Assembly (NCBI GenBank): GCA_041662665.1
Contig: JBAZSC010000001.1
Coordinates: forward strand, 449,511 to 513,510
DNA length: 64,000 nt
DNA from: Patescibacteria group bacterium
Lineage (GTDB): Bacteria > Patescibacteriota > JABMPQ01 > JAQVVF01
Reading direction: 5' to 3'
A model generated the notes under the pieces. That model worked only from the letters and a program-made list of their open reading frames with translations. It was not told the origin of the DNA and ran no database searches. Made by a program: the position numbers and the translations under genes. This document shows positions 9,196 to 19,544 of the stretch, piece by piece; within the stretch, counting starts at the first letter, position 1; each line of letters starts with the position of its first letter.

Positions 9196-11271
9196 ATGCA
9201 AAGTGAACTTCGCCAAAATAGAATCAAAAAATTAGAAGAAATCAAAGCTTTAAACATTGATCCATATCCAGCATATGCAGAAAGAACAAATACATGTCAG
9301 GAAATCATTAACGATTTTGACAAGTTTAAAGACCAAAAAAATATTATAGTTGGTCGTATTTTTTTATTTCGTCCATTTGGCAAAGCAACATTTGCCCAAA
9401 TTGGCGATGAGACAGGAAGAATCCAAGTTTATTTTAAAGAAGAAAATTTAAAAAAGAATTATGATTTAGTCAGAAAATTAGATATTGGCGATTTTATTCA
9501 AGCCACTGGCACATTATTTTTAACTAAAACAAAAGAAAAAACTGTCCAAGTCAGCAATGTAAAATTATTAACAAAATCAATTCTGCCTCTTCCGGAAAAA
9601 TTTCATGGCTTGAAAAATGAAGAAGAGCGCTATCGCAAAAGATATTTAGATTTAATTTCGAATAAAAAAACTTTTGATTTATTCAAAAAAAGAACTCAAT
9701 TCGTAAATTCAATTCGAAGCTTTATGCAAGAATCAGGTTTTATGGAAGTTGAAACTCCGACATTAGAGCATATTCCAGGCGGTGCAGACGCAACTCCATT
9801 CGTTACTCATCATAATGCATTAGACATCGATTTGTATTTACGCATTTCACTTGAGCTTCACTTAAAAAGATTAATTGTCGGCGGCTATGAAAAGATTTTT
9901 GAAATTGGCAAAGTTTTTCGTAATGAAGGAATTTCGCCTCAACATTTACAAGAATTCACAATGATGGAATATTATTGGGCTTATGCAACTTGGAAGGATC
10001 TAATTGGTTTTACTGAAAATTTTTACACCAAAATTATTAATGACACTTTTGGAACATTAAAAATAAAATACAAAGATCAAATTTTGGATTTTACAACTCC
10101 ATGGAAACAATATGATTACATAGAATTAATAAAAGACAAAACTGGTATTGATTTAAACAAAGCAAATACTTTTGAAAAACTGATCGAAGAAATTAGAGCC
10201 AAAAAAATAGAAGTTGAAAATGTAATTGGCTATGGCAGATTAGTTGATAATCTTTACAAAAAAACAGTTAGACCAAGTTTAATTCAGCCATGCTTTTTAA
10301 TTAATCAGCCTGTTGCAATTTCTCCATTAGCCAAAAAGAATGAAAATAATCAAAATACAACACAGCGTTTGCAAGTTTTAATTGCAGGCAGTGAATTAGG
10401 TAACGGTTTTTCAGAATTAAACGATCCATTAGATCAAAGACAAAGATTCGAGCAACAAGCAAAATTACGTAAAGAAGGGGACACAGAAGCGCAAATGATG
10501 GATGAAGATTTTGTTGAAGCTTTGGAATATGGCATGCCTCCAACTGCTGGTTTTGGTGTTGGCATTGATCGTTTATTAGCCATTCTTACAAATTCAGAAA
10601 ATATTAGAGATGTAATTTTCTTTCCACTAATGCGTCCCGAAAAAAATAATTTAGAAGCAAAGTCCAAGCCTTCAAAATATTCAGAAGTTGAAGAAGTGAA
10701 ATCAATGGATTCAGTTATTGACCGCAAAACAGCTTGGGAGTTATTAAAGCAAAATGTTAAAACAGAAAATTTAATTAAGCATTGTTTGGCATCAGAGGCA
10801 ATCATGAAAGCTTTAGCCAAAAAATTAAATAAACCAGAACAAGCTTGGGGAATTACTGGTCTTGTTCATGATTTAGATTTTGATTATACAAAAGAAAAGC
10901 CAGAAAAACATGCTTTGATGACAGCCGATATTTTAAATGAATATGAGGTACCAGAAGATATGATTGATGCAATTAAATCGCATAATTATGAAAATACCGG
11001 CATCACCAAAAAAACAGATTTAGATTTTGCTTTGTCGGCATCAGAACAGCTTAGCGGTTTAATTGTTTCTGCCACTCTAGTCTTGCCAGACAAAAAATTG
11101 CAATCATTAAAACCAGAATCAGTTCTGAAAAAAATGAAAGAAAAATCTTTTGCTAGAAATATCAGCAGAGAAGATATTCAAGATGTAGAAAAATTAGGAA
11201 TTAATTTAGATGAATTTGTTGCTTTAGCTATCAAGTCAATGCAAGAAATCAATAATGATTTAGGATTATAA
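9196..11271 (+). CDS. lysS: Lysyl-tRNA synthetase (class II) fused to a C-terminal HD-domain phosphohydrolase, roughly residues 515-691
   Basis: N-terminal OB-fold anticodon-binding domain. Class II motifs FRNEG, GGAD and GFGVGIDRL. Beyond ~aa 500 there is an extra ~180-aa region with HD signature (HCLASEAIM...GLVHDLD...KSHNYE). Confidence 0.85.
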   Translation: MQSELRQNRIKKLEEIKALNIDPYPAYAERTNTCQEIINDFDKFKDQKNIIVGRIFLFRPFGKATFAQIGDETGRIQVYFKEENLKKNYDLVRKLDIGDFIQATGTLFLTKTKEKTVQVSNVKLLTKSILPLPEKFHGLKNEEERYRKRYLDLISNKKTFDLFKKRTQFVNSIRSFMQESGFMEVETPTLEHIPGGADATPFVTHHNALDIDLYLRISLELHLKRLIVGGYEKIFEIGKVFRNEGISPQHLQEFTMMEYYWAYATWKDLIGFTENFYTKIINDTFGTLKIKYKDQILDFTTPWKQYDYIELIKDKTGIDLNKANTFEKLIEEIRAKKIEVENVIGYGRLVDNLYKKTVRPSLIQPCFLINQPVAISPLAKKNENNQNTTQRLQVLIAGSELGNGFSELNDPLDQRQRFEQQAKLRKEGDTEAQMMDEDFVEALEYGMPPTAGFGVGIDRLLAILTNSENIRDVIFFPLMRPEKNNLEAKSKPSKYSEVEEVKSMDSVIDRKTAWELLKQNVKTENLIKHCLASEAIMKALAKKLNKPEQAWGITGLVHDLDFDYTKEKPEKHALMTADILNEYEVPEDMIDAIKSHNYENTGITKKTDLDFALSASEQLSGLIVSATLVLPDKKLQSLKPESVLKKMKEKSFARNISREDIQDVEKLGINLDEFVALAIKSMQEINNDLGL

Positions 11272-11291
11272 TTTTTTAAAACCAAAACATA

Positions 11292-11942
11292 ATGCCAAAT
11301 CCAGAACAACCACAACCAATTCAAGAAAATTTAGCTGATGTTAAAGAGCCTCAACAAAATAATGTTGAAGGTCTTGAAGTTGCTCATGGGGAAGAATTAG
11401 AAAATGTTGTTGATGCAGCAAATGCCTTAGCAGGAAAAATTGAACGAGATGAAAAAGTTACAAAAGGAGAAGTTTATGATTTGCGAGAAGCTTTGGGACA
11501 AGTTAAATTTGATATTGGTGGAGAAATGATGACAATAGAACAGATTAAGCAAATTCCAGATCTGAAAACAAATCTTCCAATATTTCAAGAAATTCAAGCC
11601 GGGAATCTTAAGAGAGTGACAATGCTTTCGTTCTTACCTAAAAATATTGCAGAATCATTGAGCCACCATCATGGTGATCTTTATCTTATCGGTCTTTCTT
11701 CCTTATCTGATGAAGCTGCAGAATCATTGAGCCATCATCAAGGCGATCTTGATCTAAGAAATCTTTCTTCTTTATCTGACGCATCCGCAGAATCATTAAG
11801 TCATCATAACGGTGTTCTTAGTCTCTCTTTCCTTTCTTCTTTGTCTGATAGAGCTGCAGAATCATTGAGCCATCATCAGGGAAATTTAATTACTTCACCA
11901 AAAATTCAAGAACAAATCGATAAATTTAAAACCAAAAAATAA
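11292..11942 (+). CDS. Array paralog P1: conserved acidic N-domain, four 24-aa LRR-like repeats (LSSLSDxAAESLSHHxGxLxL), KFKTKK C-tail
   Basis: Starts MPNPEQPQPIQENLADVKEPQQ. First member of a 9-gene head-to-tail array. The 5' ~230 nt are ~90% identical to P4 and P8. Confidence 0.8.
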   Translation: MPNPEQPQPIQENLADVKEPQQNNVEGLEVAHGEELENVVDAANALAGKIERDEKVTKGEVYDLREALGQVKFDIGGEMMTIEQIKQIPDLKTNLPIFQEIQAGNLKRVTMLSFLPKNIAESLSHHHGDLYLIGLSSLSDEAAESLSHHQGDLDLRNLSSLSDASAESLSHHNGVLSLSFLSSLSDRAAESLSHHQGNLITSPKIQEQIDKFKTKK

Positions 11943-12548
11943 ATGCCAAATCCAGAACAACCAATGCAAGAAAAAATAGCTGATGTTAAAGAACCTCAAC
12001 AAAAAGTTGAAGGTCTTGAAATTGCGAAAACAGAAGAATTAAAAAAAGTAGTTGCTGCAGCAAATGTTTTAGCAGAAAAAATTGAAAGAAATGAAAATGT
12101 CACAGCCGGAGATGTTTTAGATTTAAAAGAGGCTTTGGGACAAGTTAAATTTGATTTCTACGGAGATCCATTAACATCAGAAGAAATAAAAAAGATTCCG
12201 AATTTACAAAAAAATATCGAAGTTTATAAAGGGATTAAGGCGAAAAAATTTTTGACTGGAGATTTATCTATACTTACTTATCTACCAGTAAAAATTGCAG
12301 AAACTATTAAGCGAGATTTTAAAAGCTCAATGCTATTTCTAAATGGCCTCACTTCTTTATCTGAAGAAGCTGCTAACAATCTCAAGGATTGGTTGAATGA
12401 ATCAAATTTCAGGACTCTTAGTATTACTGGAATTACTTCATTATCGCCTAAAGTAATTCAAATTCTTGCTCAATTTAAAAGAGAGCCTGCTGTTTCTGAA
12501 GAAATTGGCAATCAAATTGATAAATATAGACGACAATCTTATTTATGA
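11943..12548 (+). CDS. Array paralog P2 (divergent C-terminus ...QIDKYRRQSYL)
   Basis: Same conserved N-domain (MPNPEQPMQEKIADVKEPQQ...KIERNENVTAGDVLDLKEALGQVKFD). Start codon directly abuts the P1 stop. Its stop overlaps the ATG of a ribL 5' remnant. Confidence 0.75.
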   Translation: MPNPEQPMQEKIADVKEPQQKVEGLEIAKTEELKKVVAAANVLAEKIERNENVTAGDVLDLKEALGQVKFDFYGDPLTSEEIKKIPNLQKNIEVYKGIKAKKFLTGDLSILTYLPVKIAETIKRDFKSSMLFLNGLTSLSEEAANNLKDWLNESNFRTLSITGITSLSPKVIQILAQFKREPAVSEEIGNQIDKYRRQSYL

Positions 12549-12663
12549 AAAAAATACTCATCTTCGGCACATTTGATCTCTTGCATCCAGGCCATCTTGA
12601 TTTTTTAAAAATAAATATTTATAAAAGATGCTACAGAAATTTAAATTTAAAACCAAAAAATAA
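12545..12663 (+). pseudogene. Remnant of the 5' end of the RibL-like nucleotidyltransferase gene, fused to a paralog 3'-tail/junction sequence
   Basis: ATGAAAAAAATACTCATCTTCGGCACATTTGATCTCTTGCATCCAGGCCATCTTGATTTTTT matches the first ~60 nt of the intact gene at 18674 (MKK.LIFGTFDLLHPGHLDF). It then switches to ...gaaatttaaatttaaaaccaaaaaataaATG, which is the array junction. Confidence 0.7.
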
Positions 12664-13410
12664 ATGCCACATCCAGAACAACCAATGCAAGAAAATTTAG
12701 CCGACATTAAAGAGCCTCAACAACAAAAAGCTGAAGGTCTTGAAATTGCAAAAACTCCAGAATCAGAAAGAGTTATTGAATCTGCAAATAATTTAGCTGG
12801 AAAAATTGAACGAGATGAAAAAGTTACAGCTGGAGAAGTTTACGATTTAAGAGAAACTTTGGGACAAATGAAATTTGATTTTTATGGCAATAATCTGACA
12901 ATCAAAGAAATTAGGCAAGATCCAAATATTCAAAAAAATATTGGAATATGGCAAGAAATAGAAAGTGGAAATTGGAGAAATCGTGAAAAGCTTACAATGC
13001 TTCCACCAAAAATAGCCAGAGCTTTTAAAAATGTACCTGGAGATGATGTTTATCTAAATAATCTTTCTTCGTTGCAACCAGAATCAGTCAAAGCAATAAA
13101 AGATTGGGAAAAGGTTAGATTTTTACATCTTGATGGGATATCAAATATTTCAAAAGATGTCGCAACAGCTTTAGCGGCCTGGCATGGAGAAAATTTACAT
13201 TTACGCGGGCTTACAACAATATCACAAGAGGAAGCTAAAGCATTAAAAGATTGGTCAGGAACAAGGTTGTATCTTTCAGGACTCATTTCTATATCTGATG
13301 AAGCTGCAGAAGAACTTAAAAAATTTAGTGGTTTTATAGATTGTCCAGATGAAATTCAAAAACAGATTTATGGAATTAGTTTAGTTAGAAGAAGAATTCC
13401 AATGAGATAA
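12664..13410 (+). CDS. Array paralog P3 (MPHPEQ... variant, divergent C-terminus)
   Basis: Conserved N-domain with the TPESERVIESANNLAGKIERDEKVT variant, shared with P6/P7. LRR-like repeats follow. Confidence 0.75.
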   Translation: MPHPEQPMQENLADIKEPQQQKAEGLEIAKTPESERVIESANNLAGKIERDEKVTAGEVYDLRETLGQMKFDFYGNNLTIKEIRQDPNIQKNIGIWQEIESGNWRNREKLTMLPPKIARAFKNVPGDDVYLNNLSSLQPESVKAIKDWEKVRFLHLDGISNISKDVATALAAWHGENLHLRGLTTISQEEAKALKDWSGTRLYLSGLISISDEAAEELKKFSGFIDCPDEIQKQIYGISLVRRRIPMR

Positions 13411-13443
13411 AAAAGATTTATTAAAAATTTCTCAAATCTTAAT

Positions 13444-13561
13444 ATGAAAAAAGTTTTAATTTTCGGTACATTTGATCTCTTGCATCCAGGCCATCTTGAT
13501 TTTTTAAAAATAAATATTTATAAAAGATGCTACAGAAATTTAAATTTAAAACCAAAACATA
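13444..13561 (+). pseudogene. Second remnant of the RibL-like gene 5' end plus junction sequence
   Basis: Near-identical to 12545-12663 (atgaaaaaagttttaattttcggtacatttgatctcttgcatccaggccatcttgattttttaaaaataaatatttataaaagatgctacagaaatttaaatttaaaaccaaaacataATG). Confidence 0.7.
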
Positions 13562-14311
13562 ATGCCAAATCCAGAACAACCACAACCAATTCAAGAAAAT
13601 TTAGCTGACGTCAAAGAACCTCAACAAAATAATGTAGAAGGTCTTGAAGTTGCTCATGGGGAAGAATTAGAAAATGTTGTTGATGCAGCAAATGCTTTAG
13701 CAGAAAAAATTGAAAGAGATGAAAAGGTTACAGAAGGAGAAGTTTATGATTTGCGAGAAGCTTTGGGACAAATGGAATTTAATTATGGTGGAGATTCAAT
13801 GTCTATCACTGAAATTCAGAAAATTAAAGATTGGAAGAAAAATCTTGAAATCCTAAAAGAAATTAACGCCGGTAGCTTTAAGCATATTAGAGAGCTTACT
13901 TTTTTGACTGTCTCAGCTGCAGACGCTATAAGAAAAAAACGAGATGTAGATTTTTTGATAGGAGATTCAACCATACCTTTTGATAGTCTTGCTTCACTTT
14001 CTGATAGAGCCGCAGAATTGCTAAGTCATTGCAAATTGTCAAATTTACGCTTTGACAAGATAACCTCTTTATCTGATCAAGCTATTGAACATTTATCAAA
14101 TTTTTTTGGAGAACTTTATCTCAAAGGTCTTACTTCTTTGTCTGATAATGCTGCAGCTTCATTATCTAAATCTGAATGTTTAGTTCTTGCGCTTGATGGT
14201 TTAACTTCTTTGTCTGACAAAGCTGCAGAATCACTCGCTGAATATAAGGGTCAATTAGCAATAAAAAAAGAATTCAGACTGAAAATCAATCAATTTAAAA
14301 CCAAAAAATAA
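13562..14311 (+). CDS. Array paralog P4
   Basis: 5' end near-identical to P1 and P8. Has LRR-like repeats (LTSLSD.AAESL) and a ...NQFKTKK tail. Confidence 0.8.
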   Translation: MPNPEQPQPIQENLADVKEPQQNNVEGLEVAHGEELENVVDAANALAEKIERDEKVTEGEVYDLREALGQMEFNYGGDSMSITEIQKIKDWKKNLEILKEINAGSFKHIRELTFLTVSAADAIRKKRDVDFLIGDSTIPFDSLASLSDRAAELLSHCKLSNLRFDKITSLSDQAIEHLSNFFGELYLKGLTSLSDNAAASLSKSECLVLALDGLTSLSDKAAESLAEYKGQLAIKKEFRLKINQFKTKK

Positions 14312-14312
14312 T

Positions 14313-15173
14313 ATGCCAAATCCAGAACAATCGCAACCAATGCAAGAAAATGTAGCAGATGTTATAGAGCCCAAACAAAATACTGAGCCAAATATTGAAA
14401 TTGCCCAAACGCCAGAATTAGAAAACGTTGTTGACACAGCCAACGTTTTAGCAGAAAAAATTGAAGGAGATGAAAAAGTTACAGAAGGAGATGTTTATGA
14501 TTTGCGAGAAGCTCTGGGACAAATGAAATTTGATATTGGCGGAAAAATGATGACCGCAAATGAGCTCAGAGAAAATCCAGAATTACTAGCAAATTATAGG
14601 ATTTTGCAAGAAATGAAAAAAGGTAATTTTTCTAATATTCAAAATCTAACTAATCTTTCTTCTGAAACAGCAGAATTTCTTGTAAAACAAGGATTTAAGG
14701 TTGGAAATATATTAGACTTTAGAAAAATAAAAAAATTATCTTTAGATTCATTGAGAATTTTATCGAAATGGGAAGGAACTGCAATTGATTTTAGCGGATT
14801 AACTGATATGCCAAAAGAATTAGCTCGAATTTTGAAAGATTTTAAAGACGTTAGAAATTTAGACTTTAATGGTCTAACTGATTTGCCAAGCGAATCAGCA
14901 GCTATTTTAAAAGACTGGAATGGAGATTGTCTCTCTTTTGATGGACTTGCAACAATATCAAGAAATACAGCAAAAGAACTAAGCAAATGGAAAGGATTTT
15001 TTTTAGAGATAAGAGGAATCAAAACTCTTGATCAAGAAACAGCAAAAATTTTAGGAAAATGGGAGAGCACAAAACCCCGAGTACCATTATTTCCAAAAAT
15101 AGGTCATCGTACTTACTCAAGACGTTTCATCGAGGCTCCAATCAATATTTTAAATCAAATTCATGGAAGATAA
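14313..15173 (+). CDS. Array paralog P5 (divergent tail)
   Basis: Conserved N-domain. Repeats of type GLTDLPSESAAILKDWNGDxL. C-tail diverged from the KFKTKK consensus. Confidence 0.75.
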   Translation: MPNPEQSQPMQENVADVIEPKQNTEPNIEIAQTPELENVVDTANVLAEKIEGDEKVTEGDVYDLREALGQMKFDIGGKMMTANELRENPELLANYRILQEMKKGNFSNIQNLTNLSSETAEFLVKQGFKVGNILDFRKIKKLSLDSLRILSKWEGTAIDFSGLTDMPKELARILKDFKDVRNLDFNGLTDLPSESAAILKDWNGDCLSFDGLATISRNTAKELSKWKGFFLEIRGIKTLDQETAKILGKWESTKPRVPLFPKIGHRTYSRRFIEAPINILNQIHGR

Positions 15174-15178
15174 ATAAT

Positions 15179-15979
15179 ATGTCAAACCCAGAGCAACTAA
15201 TGCAAGAAAATTTAGCAGATGTCAAAGAACCTCAACAAAATGTTGAAGGTCTTGAAATTGCCAAAACACCTGAATCAGAAAAAGTTATTGAATCTGCAAA
15301 TAATTTAGCTGGAAAAATTGAACGAGATGAAAAGGTTACAGAAGGAGAAGTTGATGATTTGCGAGAAGCATTGGGACAAATGAAATTTGATATCAATGGA
15401 GAAATGATGACCATAGAACAGATTAAAGAAAATCCAGAAATGAAAATAAATTTCAAAATATTTCAAGAAATTCAATCTGGAGATCTACAAAGAAAATATA
15501 ATGTCGGACTTACGTTAGGGATTACATTTCTTCCTAAAAATATTGCTGAAGTGTTGAGCCATTATAATGGAACGCTTAACTTTCACAGACTTTCATTCAT
15601 ATCGGATTCAGCCGCAGAAGCATTGAGCCATCATAAAGGCACTCTTCATCTTAATAAACTTTCCTCTTTATCCGATAAAGCAGCGGAGTCATTGAGTCGT
15701 CATCAAGGATTTTTTCTCTATCTTATTGGGCTGTCTTCCTTATCTGATAAATCTATAGAATCATTGAGCCATTATCATGGTGGGCTTTTTCTCAGTGGTC
15801 TTTCTACTTTATCGGACAATGCCGCAGAATCATTGAGTCATCATCAAGAAAGTATTTATCTTGAAGGTCTTTCTTCTATATCTGATGCTGCCGCAGAATC
15901 ATTAAGCCATCACGACAAGTATTTAGGTGTCTCGCCAAAAATTCAAGAACAAATCAATAAATTTAAAACCAAAAAATAA
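15179..15979 (+). CDS. Array paralog P6 (MSNPEQ... start; first in-frame ATG of ORF 15059..15979)
   Basis: ATG at 15179 sits 5 nt after the P5 stop. Five LSSLSD.AAESLSHHxG repeats. ...INKFKTKK tail. Confidence 0.75.
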   Translation: MSNPEQLMQENLADVKEPQQNVEGLEIAKTPESEKVIESANNLAGKIERDEKVTEGEVDDLREALGQMKFDINGEMMTIEQIKENPEMKINFKIFQEIQSGDLQRKYNVGLTLGITFLPKNIAEVLSHYNGTLNFHRLSFISDSAAEALSHHKGTLHLNKLSSLSDKAAESLSRHQGFFLYLIGLSSLSDKSIESLSHYHGGLFLSGLSTLSDNAAESLSHHQESIYLEGLSSISDAAAESLSHHDKYLGVSPKIQEQINKFKTKK

Positions 15980-15980
15980 T

Positions 15981-16628
15981 ATGCCAAATCCAGAACAACC
16001 AATGAAAGAAAATATAGCCGACATTAAAGAGCCTCAACAACATAATGTTGAAGGTCTTGAAATCGCAAAAACACCTGAATCAGAAAGAGTAATTGAATCT
16101 GCAAACAATTTAGCAGGAAAAATTGAACGAGATGAAAAAGTTGCAGCTGGAGAAGTTTATGATTTGCGAGAAGCATTAGGACAAATGAAATTTGATGTTG
16201 GCGGAGAGATGATGACAAAAGAACAAATTAAGCAAATTCCTGATCTGCAAGAAAATCTAAAAATAATGAAAGAAATTAAAGCTAGAGATTGTCGTAGAGC
16301 AAAGCAACTTACATTTTTAACGCAAAAAACAATAGAAAATTTAGGCAAACTTGTTTATAATTTTCATTTAGACGGGATAACATTTTTGACTGATACTACC
16401 GCAGAATCATTAAGCCACCATCACGGAGATCTTTATCTGCTAAACCTCACTTCGTTATCTGACGCTGCTGCTGAATCATTGAGTCACCATCAAGCAGCAC
16501 TTTTTTTTAACAGACTATCTTCTTTATCTGATGCAGCTGCCGAGTCACTCAGTCGTCATTCAGGACTTCTTGGCCTCAATAACAGCAATCTCAAAAGACA
16601 GATAGATAAATTTAAAACCAAAAAATAA
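15981..16628 (+). CDS. Array paralog P7
   Basis: ATG at 15981 (residue 19 of track ORF 15927..16628), 1 nt after the P6 stop. ...IDKFKTKK tail. Confidence 0.75.
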   Translation: MPNPEQPMKENIADIKEPQQHNVEGLEIAKTPESERVIESANNLAGKIERDEKVAAGEVYDLREALGQMKFDVGGEMMTKEQIKQIPDLQENLKIMKEIKARDCRRAKQLTFLTQKTIENLGKLVYNFHLDGITFLTDTTAESLSHHHGDLYLLNLTSLSDAAAESLSHHQAALFFNRLSSLSDAAAESLSRHSGLLGLNNSNLKRQIDKFKTKK

Positions 16629-17474
16629 ATGCCAAATCCAGAACAACCACAACCAATTCAAGAAAATATAGCCGACGTTACAGAGCCTCAACAACAAAAT
16701 GTTGAAGGTCTTGAAGTTGCTCATGGGGAAGAATTAGAAAATGTTGTTGATGCAGCAAATGCTTTAGCAGAAAAAATTGAACGAGATGAAAAGGTTACAG
16801 AAGGAGAAGTTGATGATTTGCGAGAAGCTTTGGGACAAATGAAAATAGATGTTGGCGGAGAAATAATGACACTAGAAGAATTCAAAGGAACTTATCTTGA
16901 AATCTTAAAAGAAATCAAATCTGGAAATTTAACAAGAAGTAACGAGCTCCGCTTTTTGACTGATTCTGTTGCTACGACGTTGGAAAACAGTAGAGGTACA
17001 ATTTTTCTTAGTGGACTTACTTCATTGTCTGATTCAGCCGCTGAAATTTTAAGTCATCATCATTTTGATATTATTCTAAATGGCCTTACTTCTTTATCTG
17101 ATTCTGCTGCCGAGTCTTTTGGCCATCACCGTGGAAATCTTTTTCTTAGAGGTCTTACCTCTTTATCAGACAAAGCAGCTAAATCTCTGGGCCATCGCTA
17201 CGGAGATCTATACCTCGATAGTCTCAAAACTTTATCGGATTCTGCTGCTGAATCTTTGCGCCATCTTGATGGAAGCCTTTATCTTGATGGTCTTAGTACA
17301 TTATCGGATTCTGCTGCTGAATCGTTCAGCAATCAAAGCTGGCGAGTTTATTTTATGGGCTTAGTCTCATTGTCAGACCAGGCAATCGAATCATTAAGTC
17401 ATTTCAAAGGTAATTATCTTGGAGTTCCAGATAACATTAGTGATAAAATCAACAAATTTAAAACCAAAAAATAA
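16629..17474 (+). CDS. Array paralog P8 (six LRR-like repeats)
   Basis: ATG immediately follows the P7 TAA. 5' end near-identical to P1/P4. Confidence 0.8.
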   Translation: MPNPEQPQPIQENIADVTEPQQQNVEGLEVAHGEELENVVDAANALAEKIERDEKVTEGEVDDLREALGQMKIDVGGEIMTLEEFKGTYLEILKEIKSGNLTRSNELRFLTDSVATTLENSRGTIFLSGLTSLSDSAAEILSHHHFDIILNGLTSLSDSAAESFGHHRGNLFLRGLTSLSDKAAKSLGHRYGDLYLDSLKTLSDSAAESLRHLDGSLYLDGLSTLSDSAAESFSNQSWRVYFMGLVSLSDQAIESLSHFKGNYLGVPDNISDKINKFKTKK

Positions 17475-17475
17475 T

Positions 17476-18657
17476 ATGCCAAATCCAGAACAACCAATGC
17501 AAGAAAATTTAGCAGATGTCAAAGAACCTCAACAACAAAATGTTGAAGGTCTTGAAATTGCAAAAACTCCGGAATTAGAAAAAGTTGTTGACGCAGCCAA
17601 CGTTTTAGCAGGAAAAATTGAACGAGATGAAAAAGTTACAAAGGGAGAAGTTGATGATTTAAGGGAAGCTTTGGGGCAAATGAAATTAAATGTTGCAGGA
17701 ATCGAAATGACACTTGAAGAAGCAAAAACAAAAGGAAAATTCTACATTGAATTTCTGCAAGGAAAATTTGAACATCATTCAGAGTTAACAATTCTAACTC
17801 CAGAAATGGCACAAATAATCGCTGATAGTCACCGTTGGTTCAGCTTCCCAAAAGTTACAGAAATTTCAGACGAGACAGCGAACATTTTGGGTCGGCATGA
17901 CAGAGATTTAAATCTTTCGGGCTTAACCTCATTAACTGATAGCGCTGCTAGAGCACTTGCTAGACACAAGGGTAACATGAGTGCCTTAGGTTTATCTGGC
18001 TTAACCGAAATTTCTGATGAAGCTGCAAGATGGTGGGGAATGAACAGAAATAGCAGATTATTTTTTAACGGCGTAACAACTCTTTCTGGAGTTGCTGCAG
18101 CAAGATTATCAGCACATGAGTCTGATCTTTATTTGGAAAAATTAGTTGCTCTTCCCGAAGACGTTGCTGAAGGACTTGGTCGTTTTGGAGGCTATGAATA
18201 TAATACTCATATTTTAGATCTGTCTGGCGTTGAAGATCTTTCAGCTGAAAGCGCAAAAAATTTAGTTTCTAATCCCTATAAAAAAATTAATTTAGGACTA
18301 AAAAATATTTCTGATGAAGTTGCTGAACATCTAGGTAAATTAAAAGGTGATTTGCATCTTGAATCTCTGACCGAAATTTCATTAGAAGCTGCTGAGGGGC
18401 TATCTCATATTGAAGGTGCTTTAGTTTTATCAGGACTTACCTCAATATCGGATGATATAGCGAAAAAATTGGCAAAGGTTAAAGGCGCTCTAAATTTGCA
18501 GGGCTTAAAAGAGTTGACTCCAGATGTAGCATCAGCACTCGCAACACATACAGACGAAGATGTTTTGTGGTTGCCAAAACTTCCTGATACTCCAAAAGAA
18601 GTTGAAGAAATTCTTGCTGACAAAACAAAAAAAAGATTAGTTATGTGGTGGAAGTAG
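17476..18657 (+). CDS. Array paralog P9. The longest member, 393 aa, with ~10 regular 24-aa LRR-like repeats and no KFKTKK tail.
   Basis: ATG at 17476 (residue 20 of track ORF 17419..18657). Repeat consensus LxLxGLTxISDxAAxxLxxHxGxL. Confidence 0.8.
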   Translation: MPNPEQPMQENLADVKEPQQQNVEGLEIAKTPELEKVVDAANVLAGKIERDEKVTKGEVDDLREALGQMKLNVAGIEMTLEEAKTKGKFYIEFLQGKFEHHSELTILTPEMAQIIADSHRWFSFPKVTEISDETANILGRHDRDLNLSGLTSLTDSAARALARHKGNMSALGLSGLTEISDEAARWWGMNRNSRLFFNGVTTLSGVAAARLSAHESDLYLEKLVALPEDVAEGLGRFGGYEYNTHILDLSGVEDLSAESAKNLVSNPYKKINLGLKNISDEVAEHLGKLKGDLHLESLTEISLEAAEGLSHIEGALVLSGLTSISDDIAKKLAKVKGALNLQGLKELTPDVASALATHTDEDVLWLPKLPDTPKEVEEILADKTKKRLVMWWK

Positions 18658-18673
18658 CTTTAACAATAAATAT

Positions 18674-19081
18674 ATGAAAAAAGTTTTAATCTTCGGCACA
18701 TTTGATCTTTTGCATCCAGGCCATCTCGATTTTTTCAAGCAAGCAAAAAAACTAGGGGACTATCTTGAAGTTATTGTTGCTCGTGATCAAACAGTCAGCG
18801 CAATCAAAAAACATCGGACATTATTCAATGAAAAAGACAGATTAGCCAATGTCAAAAATCAAAAGATTGTTGATGAAGCAAAATTGGGAAATTTAGATGA
18901 TCCATACAAAATAGTAAAACAAGAAAAGCCAGATATTATTGCCTTAGGCTATGATCAAAAATCATATACAGAAGAATTAGAAGACAAAATCAAGGAATTC
19001 GGTTTTAAAACAAAAATCGTCAGATTAAAATCATTTAAACCAGAAAAATATAAATCATCGAAATTAAAATTAAATTTGTAA
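18674..19081 (+). CDS. Cytidylyltransferase-family nucleotidyltransferase, RibL-like FMN adenylyltransferase
   Basis: IFGTFDLLHPGHLDF (HxGH motif), VIVARDQTV and KPDIIALGYDQ align closely with archaeal RibL (AGTFDILHPGH...VIVARDETV...KPDIIVLGPDQ). 135 aa. Confidence 0.6.
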   Translation: MKKVLIFGTFDLLHPGHLDFFKQAKKLGDYLEVIVARDQTVSAIKKHRTLFNEKDRLANVKNQKIVDEAKLGNLDDPYKIVKQEKPDIIALGYDQKSYTEELEDKIKEFGFKTKIVRLKSFKPEKYKSSKLKLNL

Positions 19082-19122
19082 ACGGTAGCGACAGGGCACT
19101 GCCCTGTCGCTACGCCATACAA
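19082..19122 (+). terminator. GC-rich perfect palindrome ggtagcgacagggca-ctg-ccctgtcgctacg
   Basis: Roughly 13-bp stem between the RibL-like gene and cutA. There is no U-tract. Confidence 0.4.
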
Positions 19123-19441: not shown

Positions 19442-19544
19442 TATTCGTAATTCGCAACATTTGCATTATTTGTACTTTGTCCGCCGAAGTCCCGCAGGAC
19501 GAAGGCGGAGATTTGTATTATATTTATTTAATAAAACCAAACAA

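Follow-up and report, generated by a model that had tools for sequence, protein, structure and literature searches.

Short-tract gene conversion drives concerted evolution in bacterial surface and host-interaction families, for example in the tandem internalin-type leucine-rich repeat (LRR) genes of Listeria. Relics left by novel-join duplications consist of the 5′ part of an adjacent gene, linked through a unique breakpoint to DNA from within the duplicated region, with the intact gene kept at the array edge. Arrays of orphan modules are known from the immunity genes of the Vibrio cholerae type VI secretion system (T6SS), for which homology on one side combined with an illegitimate join has been proposed (PMC5361080), and from the Rhs and contact-dependent inhibition (CDI) systems (taken from the references cited in PMC5361080). 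The locus described here resembles each of these in part. It lies in a stretch of 64,000 nucleotides (nt; the window) from a metagenome-assembled genome (MAG) of a Patescibacteria group bacterium (assembly GCA_041662665.1, contig JBAZSC010000001.1 of 645 kb, positions 449,511 to 513,510), where nine same-strand open reading frames (ORFs), P1-P9, fill 11.3-18.7 kb. A lysyl-tRNA synthetase (LysRS) gene lies upstream of this array, and a 135-amino-acid (aa) nucleotidyltransferase gene (18674-19081), a CutA1 gene and a gene for a bactofilin-domain membrane protein lie downstream. Within the array are two short elements, remnants r1 and r2, which carry the start of the nucleotidyltransferase gene and form the subject of this analysis. 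Truncated gene copies at rearrangement joins and fragments between array modules are already well known, and the present case is a new example of them, with no new mechanism.

A sequence-only reading of this stretch had noted that the first approximately 60 nt of the intact gene reappear at 12545 and 13444, and alignment, blastn and tblastn all confirm it. The elements concerned are as follows.

18674-19081, plus strand: intact HxGH nucleotidyltransferase gene, 135 aa (PF01467), source of the remnants
12545-12606, plus strand: remnant r1 (MKKILIFGTFDLLHPGHLDF), copy of nt 1-62 of the nucleotidyltransferase gene
12607-12642, plus strand: r1 post-break filler, 36 nt; 12604-12628 resembles the gene's leader and start (18659-18683), the remainder being without identifiable source
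12643-12663, plus strand: r1 junction AAATTTAAAACCAAAAAATAA, the same sequence as in the tail and leader ahead of P2 and P8
13444-13505, plus strand: remnant r2 (MKKVLIFGTFDLLHPGHLDF), copy of nt 1-62 of the nucleotidyltransferase gene
13506-13561, plus strand: r2 filler followed by its junction (..AAATTTAAAACCAAAACATA), in the variant found upstream of P1
12569-12658, plus strand: 90-nt perfect tract (= 13468-13557) crossing the breakpoint, likely a recent gene-conversion patch

With blastn-short, r2 (13442-13505) matches the gene at 93.75% identity over 64 nt (E = 5.6e-22) and r1 (12560-12606) at 95.7% over 47 nt (E = 1.3e-16); in blastn the identity is 92.5% for r2 (67 nt) and 88.4% for r1 (69 nt). 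Three copies only of the gene's start, namely r1, r2 and the intact gene, are found in the window by tblastn, and a 38-nt core pattern occurs three times there and in none of 100 shuffled sequences. Chance similarity between AT-rich sequences, which the sequence-only reading had itself named as the possible refutation, is ruled out by the blastn-short E values and the shuffle test (0/100). No more fragments of the nucleotidyltransferase gene, or of other genes, were found by tblastx in the tails and spacers of the array. Each remnant retains 62 of the 405 nt of the gene before unrelated sequence begins, leaving a truncated coding sequence in which residues 1-20/22 alone match; this falls short of a complete nucleotide-binding fold of about 130 residues, and the TIGR00125 score of 25.7 bits lies below the cut-off of 27.7. 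The alignment to nt 1-62 bears out the claimed derivation from the downstream gene, and the two elements, each of about 120 nt, can be identified on this basis as relics of its 5′ end, from about -2 to +62/65. The starts of r1 and r2 are 899 nt apart, in agreement with the 900 bp or so given earlier, and the reported overlap of the P2 stop with the r1 start codon (ATGA) follows from the ORF coordinates, the P2 ORF ending at 12548 and the r1 ORF beginning at 12545.

In a MAG, repeat-induced chimerism could in principle create such a structure, and short-read contigs do break within these repeats: one (L083) ends in the N-terminal module of P4 and two others (L001 and L002) begin inside P9. That the remnants are an assembly artefact of this kind is nevertheless scarcely credible. 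The contig ending in P4, a separate MEGAHIT assembly product (ENA ERZ27249449 k141_492035), is 100% identical to window positions 10550-13733 and gives the order P1-P2-r1-P3-r2-P4 with both remnants covered, while the six clustered differences between r1 and r2, together with their unique flanks, are unlike collapsed or chimeric repeats.

Both remnants leave the match to the gene after GATTTTTT and continue into a common 36-nt filler, AAAAATAAATATTTATAAAAGATGCTACAGAAATTT, which then runs in each case into the 20-21-nt junction that precedes the paralogs, AAATTTAAAACCAAAA[A/C]ATA(A)ATG. The alignment thus upholds a shared break followed by paralog-junction sequence, and since breakpoint and filler are common to both, the two remnants have a single origin. 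The further claim that they continue into the 3′ tail of a paralog stands for the last 21 nt, the only part of the post-break sequence in which the comparisons allow a tail to be recognised, but not for the preceding 30-36 nt from break to junction, which gave no significant match to any paralog tail and scored no better than shuffled sequence. Part of the post-break sequence is similar instead to the leader and start of the nucleotidyltransferase gene, 12604-12628 in r1 and 13503-13527 in r2 matching 18659-18683 at 21 of 25 positions with one gap; 0.09% of random 40-nt windows score as well, and this comparison of 25 nt was made post hoc and is given as a lead. It hints that each element may hold two nested relics, of 62 nt and about 9 nt, produced by two successive rearrangements ending in the gene's 5′ end. 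An 11-codon mini-ORF, ATG CTA CAG AAA TTT AAA TTT AAA ACC AAA AAA TAA, is present in each remnant (12628-12663 and 13527-13561), and its stop directly adjoins or overlaps the start codon of the following paralog, reproducing the stop-start layout of the normal junctions.

Ahead of r1 and r2, similarity to the P9 tail and leader is not significant beyond about 10 nt, nor is that of the two upstream sequences to each other. Without a P9-like tail at this position, the arrangement that a textbook tandem duplication would leave (P9 copy, relic, tail) can no longer be seen. As in relics of novel-join duplications, a 5′ fragment of the neighbouring gene is joined at a unique breakpoint to sequence from the array, the intact gene remains at the array edge, and a T-run and AA are common at the join. 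Unlike in those relics, the gene side alone is traceable here, a P9-like tail being undetectable and the 30-36 nt of filler having no clear source, and the relic occurs twice with unrelated flanks around its two copies.

From the near-identity of two remnants lying one unit apart, it had been argued that unequal crossing-over at the junction had duplicated a block comprising a remnant and a paralog. The paralogs on which this depends are listed below (GenBank locus tags for the array region WC663_02370 to WC663_02420).

11292-11942, plus strand: P1, LRR paralog, WC663_02370; N-terminal type A (VAHGEELENVVDAANALA), SLSHH-type repeats, KFKTKK tail
11943-12548, plus strand: P2, LRR paralog, WC663_02375; tail departs from the standard ..QIDKF|KTKK* after QIDKY; TGA stop overlaps the r1 ATG
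12664-13410, plus strand: P3, LRR paralog, WC663_02385, between r1 and r2; N-terminal type B (ESERVIESANNLAG), KDW-type repeats, non-standard tail
13562-14311, plus strand: P4, LRR paralog; N-terminal 250 nt 92-94% identical to P1 and P8
14313-15173, plus strand: P5, LRR paralog; KDW-type repeats, non-standard tail
15179-15979, plus strand: P6, LRR paralog, WC663_02405
15981-16628, plus strand: P7, LRR paralog, WC663_02410
16629-17474, plus strand: P8, LRR paralog, the one modelled structurally; residues 1-32 disordered, helical N-domain, 23-residue beta/alpha solenoid
17476-18657, plus strand: P9, boundary paralog, the sole one with a sister-species ortholog (86% aa identity, L003 12212-13396)

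The spacing of 899 nt does equal one unit and the breakpoint is common to both copies. However, while the remnants are about 94% identical to each other, the adjacent paralogs are not similarly close: the N-terminal 330 nt of P2/P3 and of P3/P4 are 76-77% identical, the synonymous divergence (dS, Nei-Gojobori) is 0.57 and 0.41, respectively, and the C-terminal parts share 36% and 29% aa identity. Neither pair are mutual nearest relatives, and no tract of at least 84% identity was found by blastn in the array outside the N-terminal modules. A recent tandem duplication should give whole units of similar, low divergence, which is not what is seen, and as a recent event the duplication of a remnant with its paralog is contradicted by the age of these flanks. 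All six differences between r1 and r2 fall within 12554-12568, the 15 nt before the 90-nt perfect tract (P about 9e-5 for the clustering), so that the first 24 nt of the remnants differ at six sites (25%), close to the approximately 24% of the flanking N-terminal modules. An old duplication of the unit followed by a recent 90-nt conversion patch could therefore fit the data, but taken as a whole block duplication would seem rather unlikely.

The N-terminal modules themselves are patchworks, in which the nearest relative of a paralog switches every 60-120 nt with local identities of 95-98%; P6, for instance, is 98% identical first to P9 and then to P8 (segments compared: 11268-11620, 11919-12270, 12640-12990, 13538-13890, 14289-14640, 15155-15510, 15957-16310, 16605-16960 and 17452-17800). 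N-terminal type is also incongruent with repeat type, P3 combining an N-module of the P6/P7 type with KDW repeats of the P2/P5 type. Such a patchwork has the signature expected of short-tract gene conversion, and the mosaic blocks change partner at the conserved junction, which supports the role of anchor assigned to it earlier. Conversion in short patches would be the simplest reason for the likeness of the two remnants and would also keep the leader and N-terminal parts similar. The array shares with the Listeria internalin-type genes a tandem set of LRR-fold paralogs with mosaic identity, in which the N-terminal part is homogenised and the repeats diverge; in contrast to them, its proteins have no signal peptide or anchor and no Pfam or NCBIfam model, and they are encoded in a Patescibacteria MAG.

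It is therefore considered probable, if well short of certain, that r1 and r2 are relics of the nucleotidyltransferase gene's 5′ end that arose through a single illegitimate join and were carried along by array shuffling and short-patch gene conversion. One join linked the 5′ end of the gene to the conserved tail and leader of a paralog. The array would have evolved by module shuffling together with conversion in short patches, and the relics, lying directly upstream of the conserved leader, would have been carried along by that process. The 90-nt patch across the breakpoint may then have been homogenised recently, or copied from site to site, independently of the old flanking paralogs.

GenBank annotates both remnants as parts of coding sequences (CDS), and these extend into the paralogs that follow.

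12545-12700, plus strand: r1 ORF, 51 aa, WC663_02380 / MFA6296173.1; GenBank CDS 'hypothetical protein', extending 37 nt into P3
13444-13608, plus strand: r2 ORF, 54 aa, WC663_02390 / MFA6296175.1; GenBank CDS 'hypothetical protein', extending 47 nt into P4

The r2 ORF is named 'glycerol-3-phosphate cytidylyltransferase-like' at JGI, and the label 'pseudogene' is at odds with the public annotation, in which both ORFs are called CDS. Eight sites in the 62 nt vary among r1, r2 and the gene, seven of them synonymous in the gene's frame and the eighth changing V to I. Depending on the way in which events are counted, P for this synonymous excess under random mutation lies between 1e-4 and 1e-2, for eight clustered sites some of which equal ortholog alleles; the bias could stem from selection on the reading frame, from exchange with alleles that function, or from chance, the sample being very small. 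Among 5.8 billion proteins the remnant ORFs have each other as their only homologues, and the r2 ORF, though present in the protein collection, has no exact entry in the contig index.

Several points weigh against relics formed by one join and spread by conversion. The P9 tail is not detectable in the sequence upstream of them, and as the 30-36 nt of filler have no clear source the original rearrangement is not reconstructable. Transfer of a patch to a new site between paralogs requires homology on the left-hand side, where it is weak. Both relics, moreover, have retained an ATG, followed by a frame that stays open for 51-54 codons, and are annotated as CDS, r1 overlaps the P2 stop, and seven synonymous sites out of eight is a pattern that neutral decay does not predict. 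Nonetheless, the relics are most likely non-functional by-products whose start codon and frame happen to stay open.

These same features, the synonymous excess, the open ORFs and the overlap with P2, would suit functional remnants, acting as micro-ORFs, as translation-initiation cassettes that carry ribosomes over the two interrupted stop-start junctions, or as an internal promoter. The mini-ORF (ATGCTACAG...AAATAA) stops exactly at the ATG of P3. A Shine-Dalgarno (SD) core precedes 2 of the 47 long ORFs of the window (background 7.7%), the genome being essentially without SD sequences, and initiation would thus depend on the context of the leader; the remnants have an A-rich 5′ end, and their RNA has less structure than shuffled versions do (z = +0.7 to +1.0). 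A TTGATT-17 nt-TATAAA match across the break is a promoter candidate, but it is not reported by a consensus scan, and neither promoter-like matches nor terminators are enriched in the region. There is also no Rfam match within the remnants and no fold more stable than in shuffled sequence. With no homologous small protein elsewhere, with C-terminal thirds that differ between the two ORFs, with a 20-residue piece of a Rossmann-like fold that is not expected to fold alone, and with a sample of eight sites, a function of this kind appears very improbable.

The surroundings of the array were compared with those in two sister species (L003 and L004), located through their LysRS (88-89% aa identity). 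The flanks in the window are as follows.

9196-11271, plus strand: lysyl-tRNA synthetase (lysine--tRNA ligase), the conserved left flank of the array; L003/L004 orthologs at 88-89% identity
19124-19441, plus strand: CutA1-family gene, right flank, conserved in L004

In L003 the order is LysRS, a single P9 ortholog (394 aa, 86% identical to P9) and the nucleotidyltransferase gene, downstream of which lies an IS200-like Y1 transposase gene. L004 has LysRS, a Ham1-family gene, the nucleotidyltransferase gene, CutA and the same membrane protein, with no paralog. The Ham1-family gene, for an NTP pyrophosphatase (L004 12083-12694), occupies the position of the array, and what lies between LysRS and the nucleotidyltransferase gene therefore varies across the group. 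This comparison, which had been proposed earlier as a check, thus gives one paralog in L003 and none in L004, and it follows that the adjacency of P9 to the nucleotidyltransferase gene is older than the nine-copy array. To that extent the idea that an ancestral boundary between paralog and gene was copied inward holds, since the adjacency is ancestral, but only the gene side was visibly copied, with no P9-like tail. P1-P8 and the remnants may either be specific to this lineage or have been lost in the others.

Synonymous differences from L003, expressed as a proportion (pS), vary along the locus (segments compared: window 10900-11271 and 17476-18748; L003 11900-12097 and 12212-13480). In LysRS they are about 0.47 over most of the gene and 0.25 in the last 68 codons, in P9 about 0.23 over codons 151-394, and in the nucleotidyltransferase gene 0.21 over codons 1-25 and 0.55-0.72 over codons 26-135. 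This suggests that lineages may have exchanged the variable locus at a later date than the DNA around it, by crossing over within the genes on either side. On the right, the edge of the exchanged tract would then lie near nt 65-75 of the gene, close to the breakpoint of the remnants. As the 5′ codons of the gene are also somewhat conserved relative to L004 (pS 0.40-0.47), this coincidence is statistically weak and has been downgraded. Alleles of both sister species recur in the remnants, CTC at codon 5 of r1 being that of L004 and ATT at codon 6 of r2 that of L003.

The lower divergence of the locus than of its flanks (0.21-0.25 against 0.47-0.72) and this sharing of alleles, which would account for the synonymous differences, are what would be expected if paralog cassettes had been captured from related lineages by homology on one side and an illegitimate join in the 5′ end of the nucleotidyltransferase gene on the other. 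The conserved N-terminal module or the 3′ end of LysRS is proposed as the anchoring homology, the C-termini of P1-P8 are deeply divergent yet absent from both sister species, and the mechanism and analogous arrays are described (PMC5361080). Against this, the common breakpoint and filler mean that at most one such event is recorded, and the low divergence of codons 1-25 is in part a general effect at the 5′ end, seen also with L004. In GC content the array does not differ from its flanks, giving no sign of foreign origin in base composition, and searches of GTDB representatives, JGI metagenomes and the protein collection found no donor lineage with an array beside this gene. Capture of foreign DNA is thus considered clearly unlikely. 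The locus does share with the Rhs, CDI and T6SS orphan arrays its constant and hypervariable modules, its conserved flanking genes and, in the two fragments at module junctions, the way in which successive recombinations leave pieces of genes as a historical record. Unlike in those arrays, Pfam and NCBIfam scans found no toxin, immunity or secretion domains in the array and its neighbours, the displaced fragment comes from a housekeeping-type neighbour and a single join event is recorded. The likeness thus concerns mechanism only, and the locus is not a member of these systems.

A bolder combination of these ideas would have the 5′ end of the gene co-opted, its copies being under selection as initiation or ribosome-relay cassettes or as micro-ORFs that maintain expression of the downstream LRR paralogs in a genome lacking SD sequences, and the DNA from LysRS to the nucleotidyltransferase gene being an island open to exchange, with lineages swapping its cassettes through crossovers in the genes on either side. 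If true, this would explain why the changes are synonymous, why ATG and frame are intact and why the start overlaps the P2 stop, though it is regarded as a long shot.

Each of the nine paralogs begins with a conserved N-terminal module of approximately 75-100 residues (MPNPEQP...), followed by 23-residue repeats (LTSLSDxAAESLSHHxGxLxLxG) that vary in number, and five of the nine end in a KFKTKK* tail, the stop codon of which lies against, or almost against, the following ATG. Compared with the conserved leader, N-terminal module and basic tail, the repeat domains are very divergent. Upstream of P1 the leader AAAACCAAA(A/C)A (11272-11291) is non-coding, following LysRS, and it is also found ahead of the unrelated bactofilin-domain gene (19525-19544). 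As the leader bases inside the array encode the KFKTKK* of the preceding paralog, the tail there doubles as the leader of the next gene.

The AlphaFold2 model of P8 (predicted local distance difference test, pLDDT, 83.4) shows 23-residue strand-helix repeats, and its top Foldseek matches in the PDB are LRR proteins, namely the Nogo receptor, Leptospira LRR proteins, repebodies and FBXL. By its modelled fold, the C-terminal domain of the paralogs is thus predicted to be an LRR solenoid. The LRR families of Pfam remain below their gathering thresholds, the best being LRR_8 at 14.9 bits against 27 and in P4 only; relatives likewise lack an LRR match in Pfam, and no Pfam or NCBIfam model covers the paralog family. 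The N-terminus of the paralogs is acidic and predicted to be disordered.

The family is rare. A phmmer search with P9 against 1.84 billion representatives gave thousands of matches to the repeats alone in long proteins and about ten proteins with the N-terminal module. An alignment of the N-terminal domain found nothing in GTDB representative genomes searched through peptide patterns, in a word-indexed search of 5.8 billion proteins or in viral contigs, and a single locus in JGI metagenomes, with a single-copy gene (contig L084). A further genome (L085) holds three members, two of which stand in tandem, have a KFKNKK tail and show the stop/start overlap seen in the array. On this Patescibacteria contig (L085 8049-13632) the pair is flanked on one side by an AAA_5 (MoxR-like) ATPase and on the other by a protein of 660 aa that matches nothing in Pfam, neighbours that may hint at a functional partnership absent from the window. 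Outside the window, the source MAG has a second locus of the family beside the threonyl-tRNA synthetase (ThrRS) gene (L087 2157-2734 / L088 1247-1824; WC663_01650, 190 aa, tail INKFKVRK*). Since both contigs end just past the next ATGCCA, another tandem set probably exists by ThrRS, and the family adjoins ThrRS in L085 also. In a genome that is reduced and probably episymbiotic, the LRR-fold proteins of the array are candidates for recognition of a host or partner.

The intact nucleotidyltransferase matches PF01467 over its full length (E = 3.2e-20, profile positions 2-131 of 133), with an HxGH motif near the N-terminus, and scores 64.9 bits with TIGR00125 against a cut-off of 27.7; the closest solved structure is 3glv_A (E = 2.7e-28). 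The FAD-synthetase equivalog models fall below their cut-offs (NF045965 RibF_rel, 26.9 bits against 200; PF06574, 19.3 against 27), and no model supports a specific substrate for the 135-aa protein, which JGI names 'FAD synthetase'. On these profile matches, which include no equivalog, the earlier 'RibL-like' is a label only. GC-rich palindromes lie at 19076-19122 within DNA of 31-35% GC, one of them an inverted repeat with 23-nt arms across the stop of the nucleotidyltransferase gene, and a similar GC-rich hairpin is found in L003 between LysRS and the paralog (12120-12190); these could be terminators or repetitive extragenic palindromic (REP)-like elements.

The remnants had also been taken as a record of how the array grew. 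They prove recombination between the array and the neighbouring gene, but they neither date nor explain its growth to nine copies. Their identification as fragments of a neighbouring gene corrects the annotation of two GenBank 'hypothetical protein' CDS. They are direct sequence evidence of recombination between a lineage-specific, nine-member LRR array and the gene beside it, and with an array that is still being homogenised in short patches they provide a small case study of variable protein arrays in uncultured bacteria.

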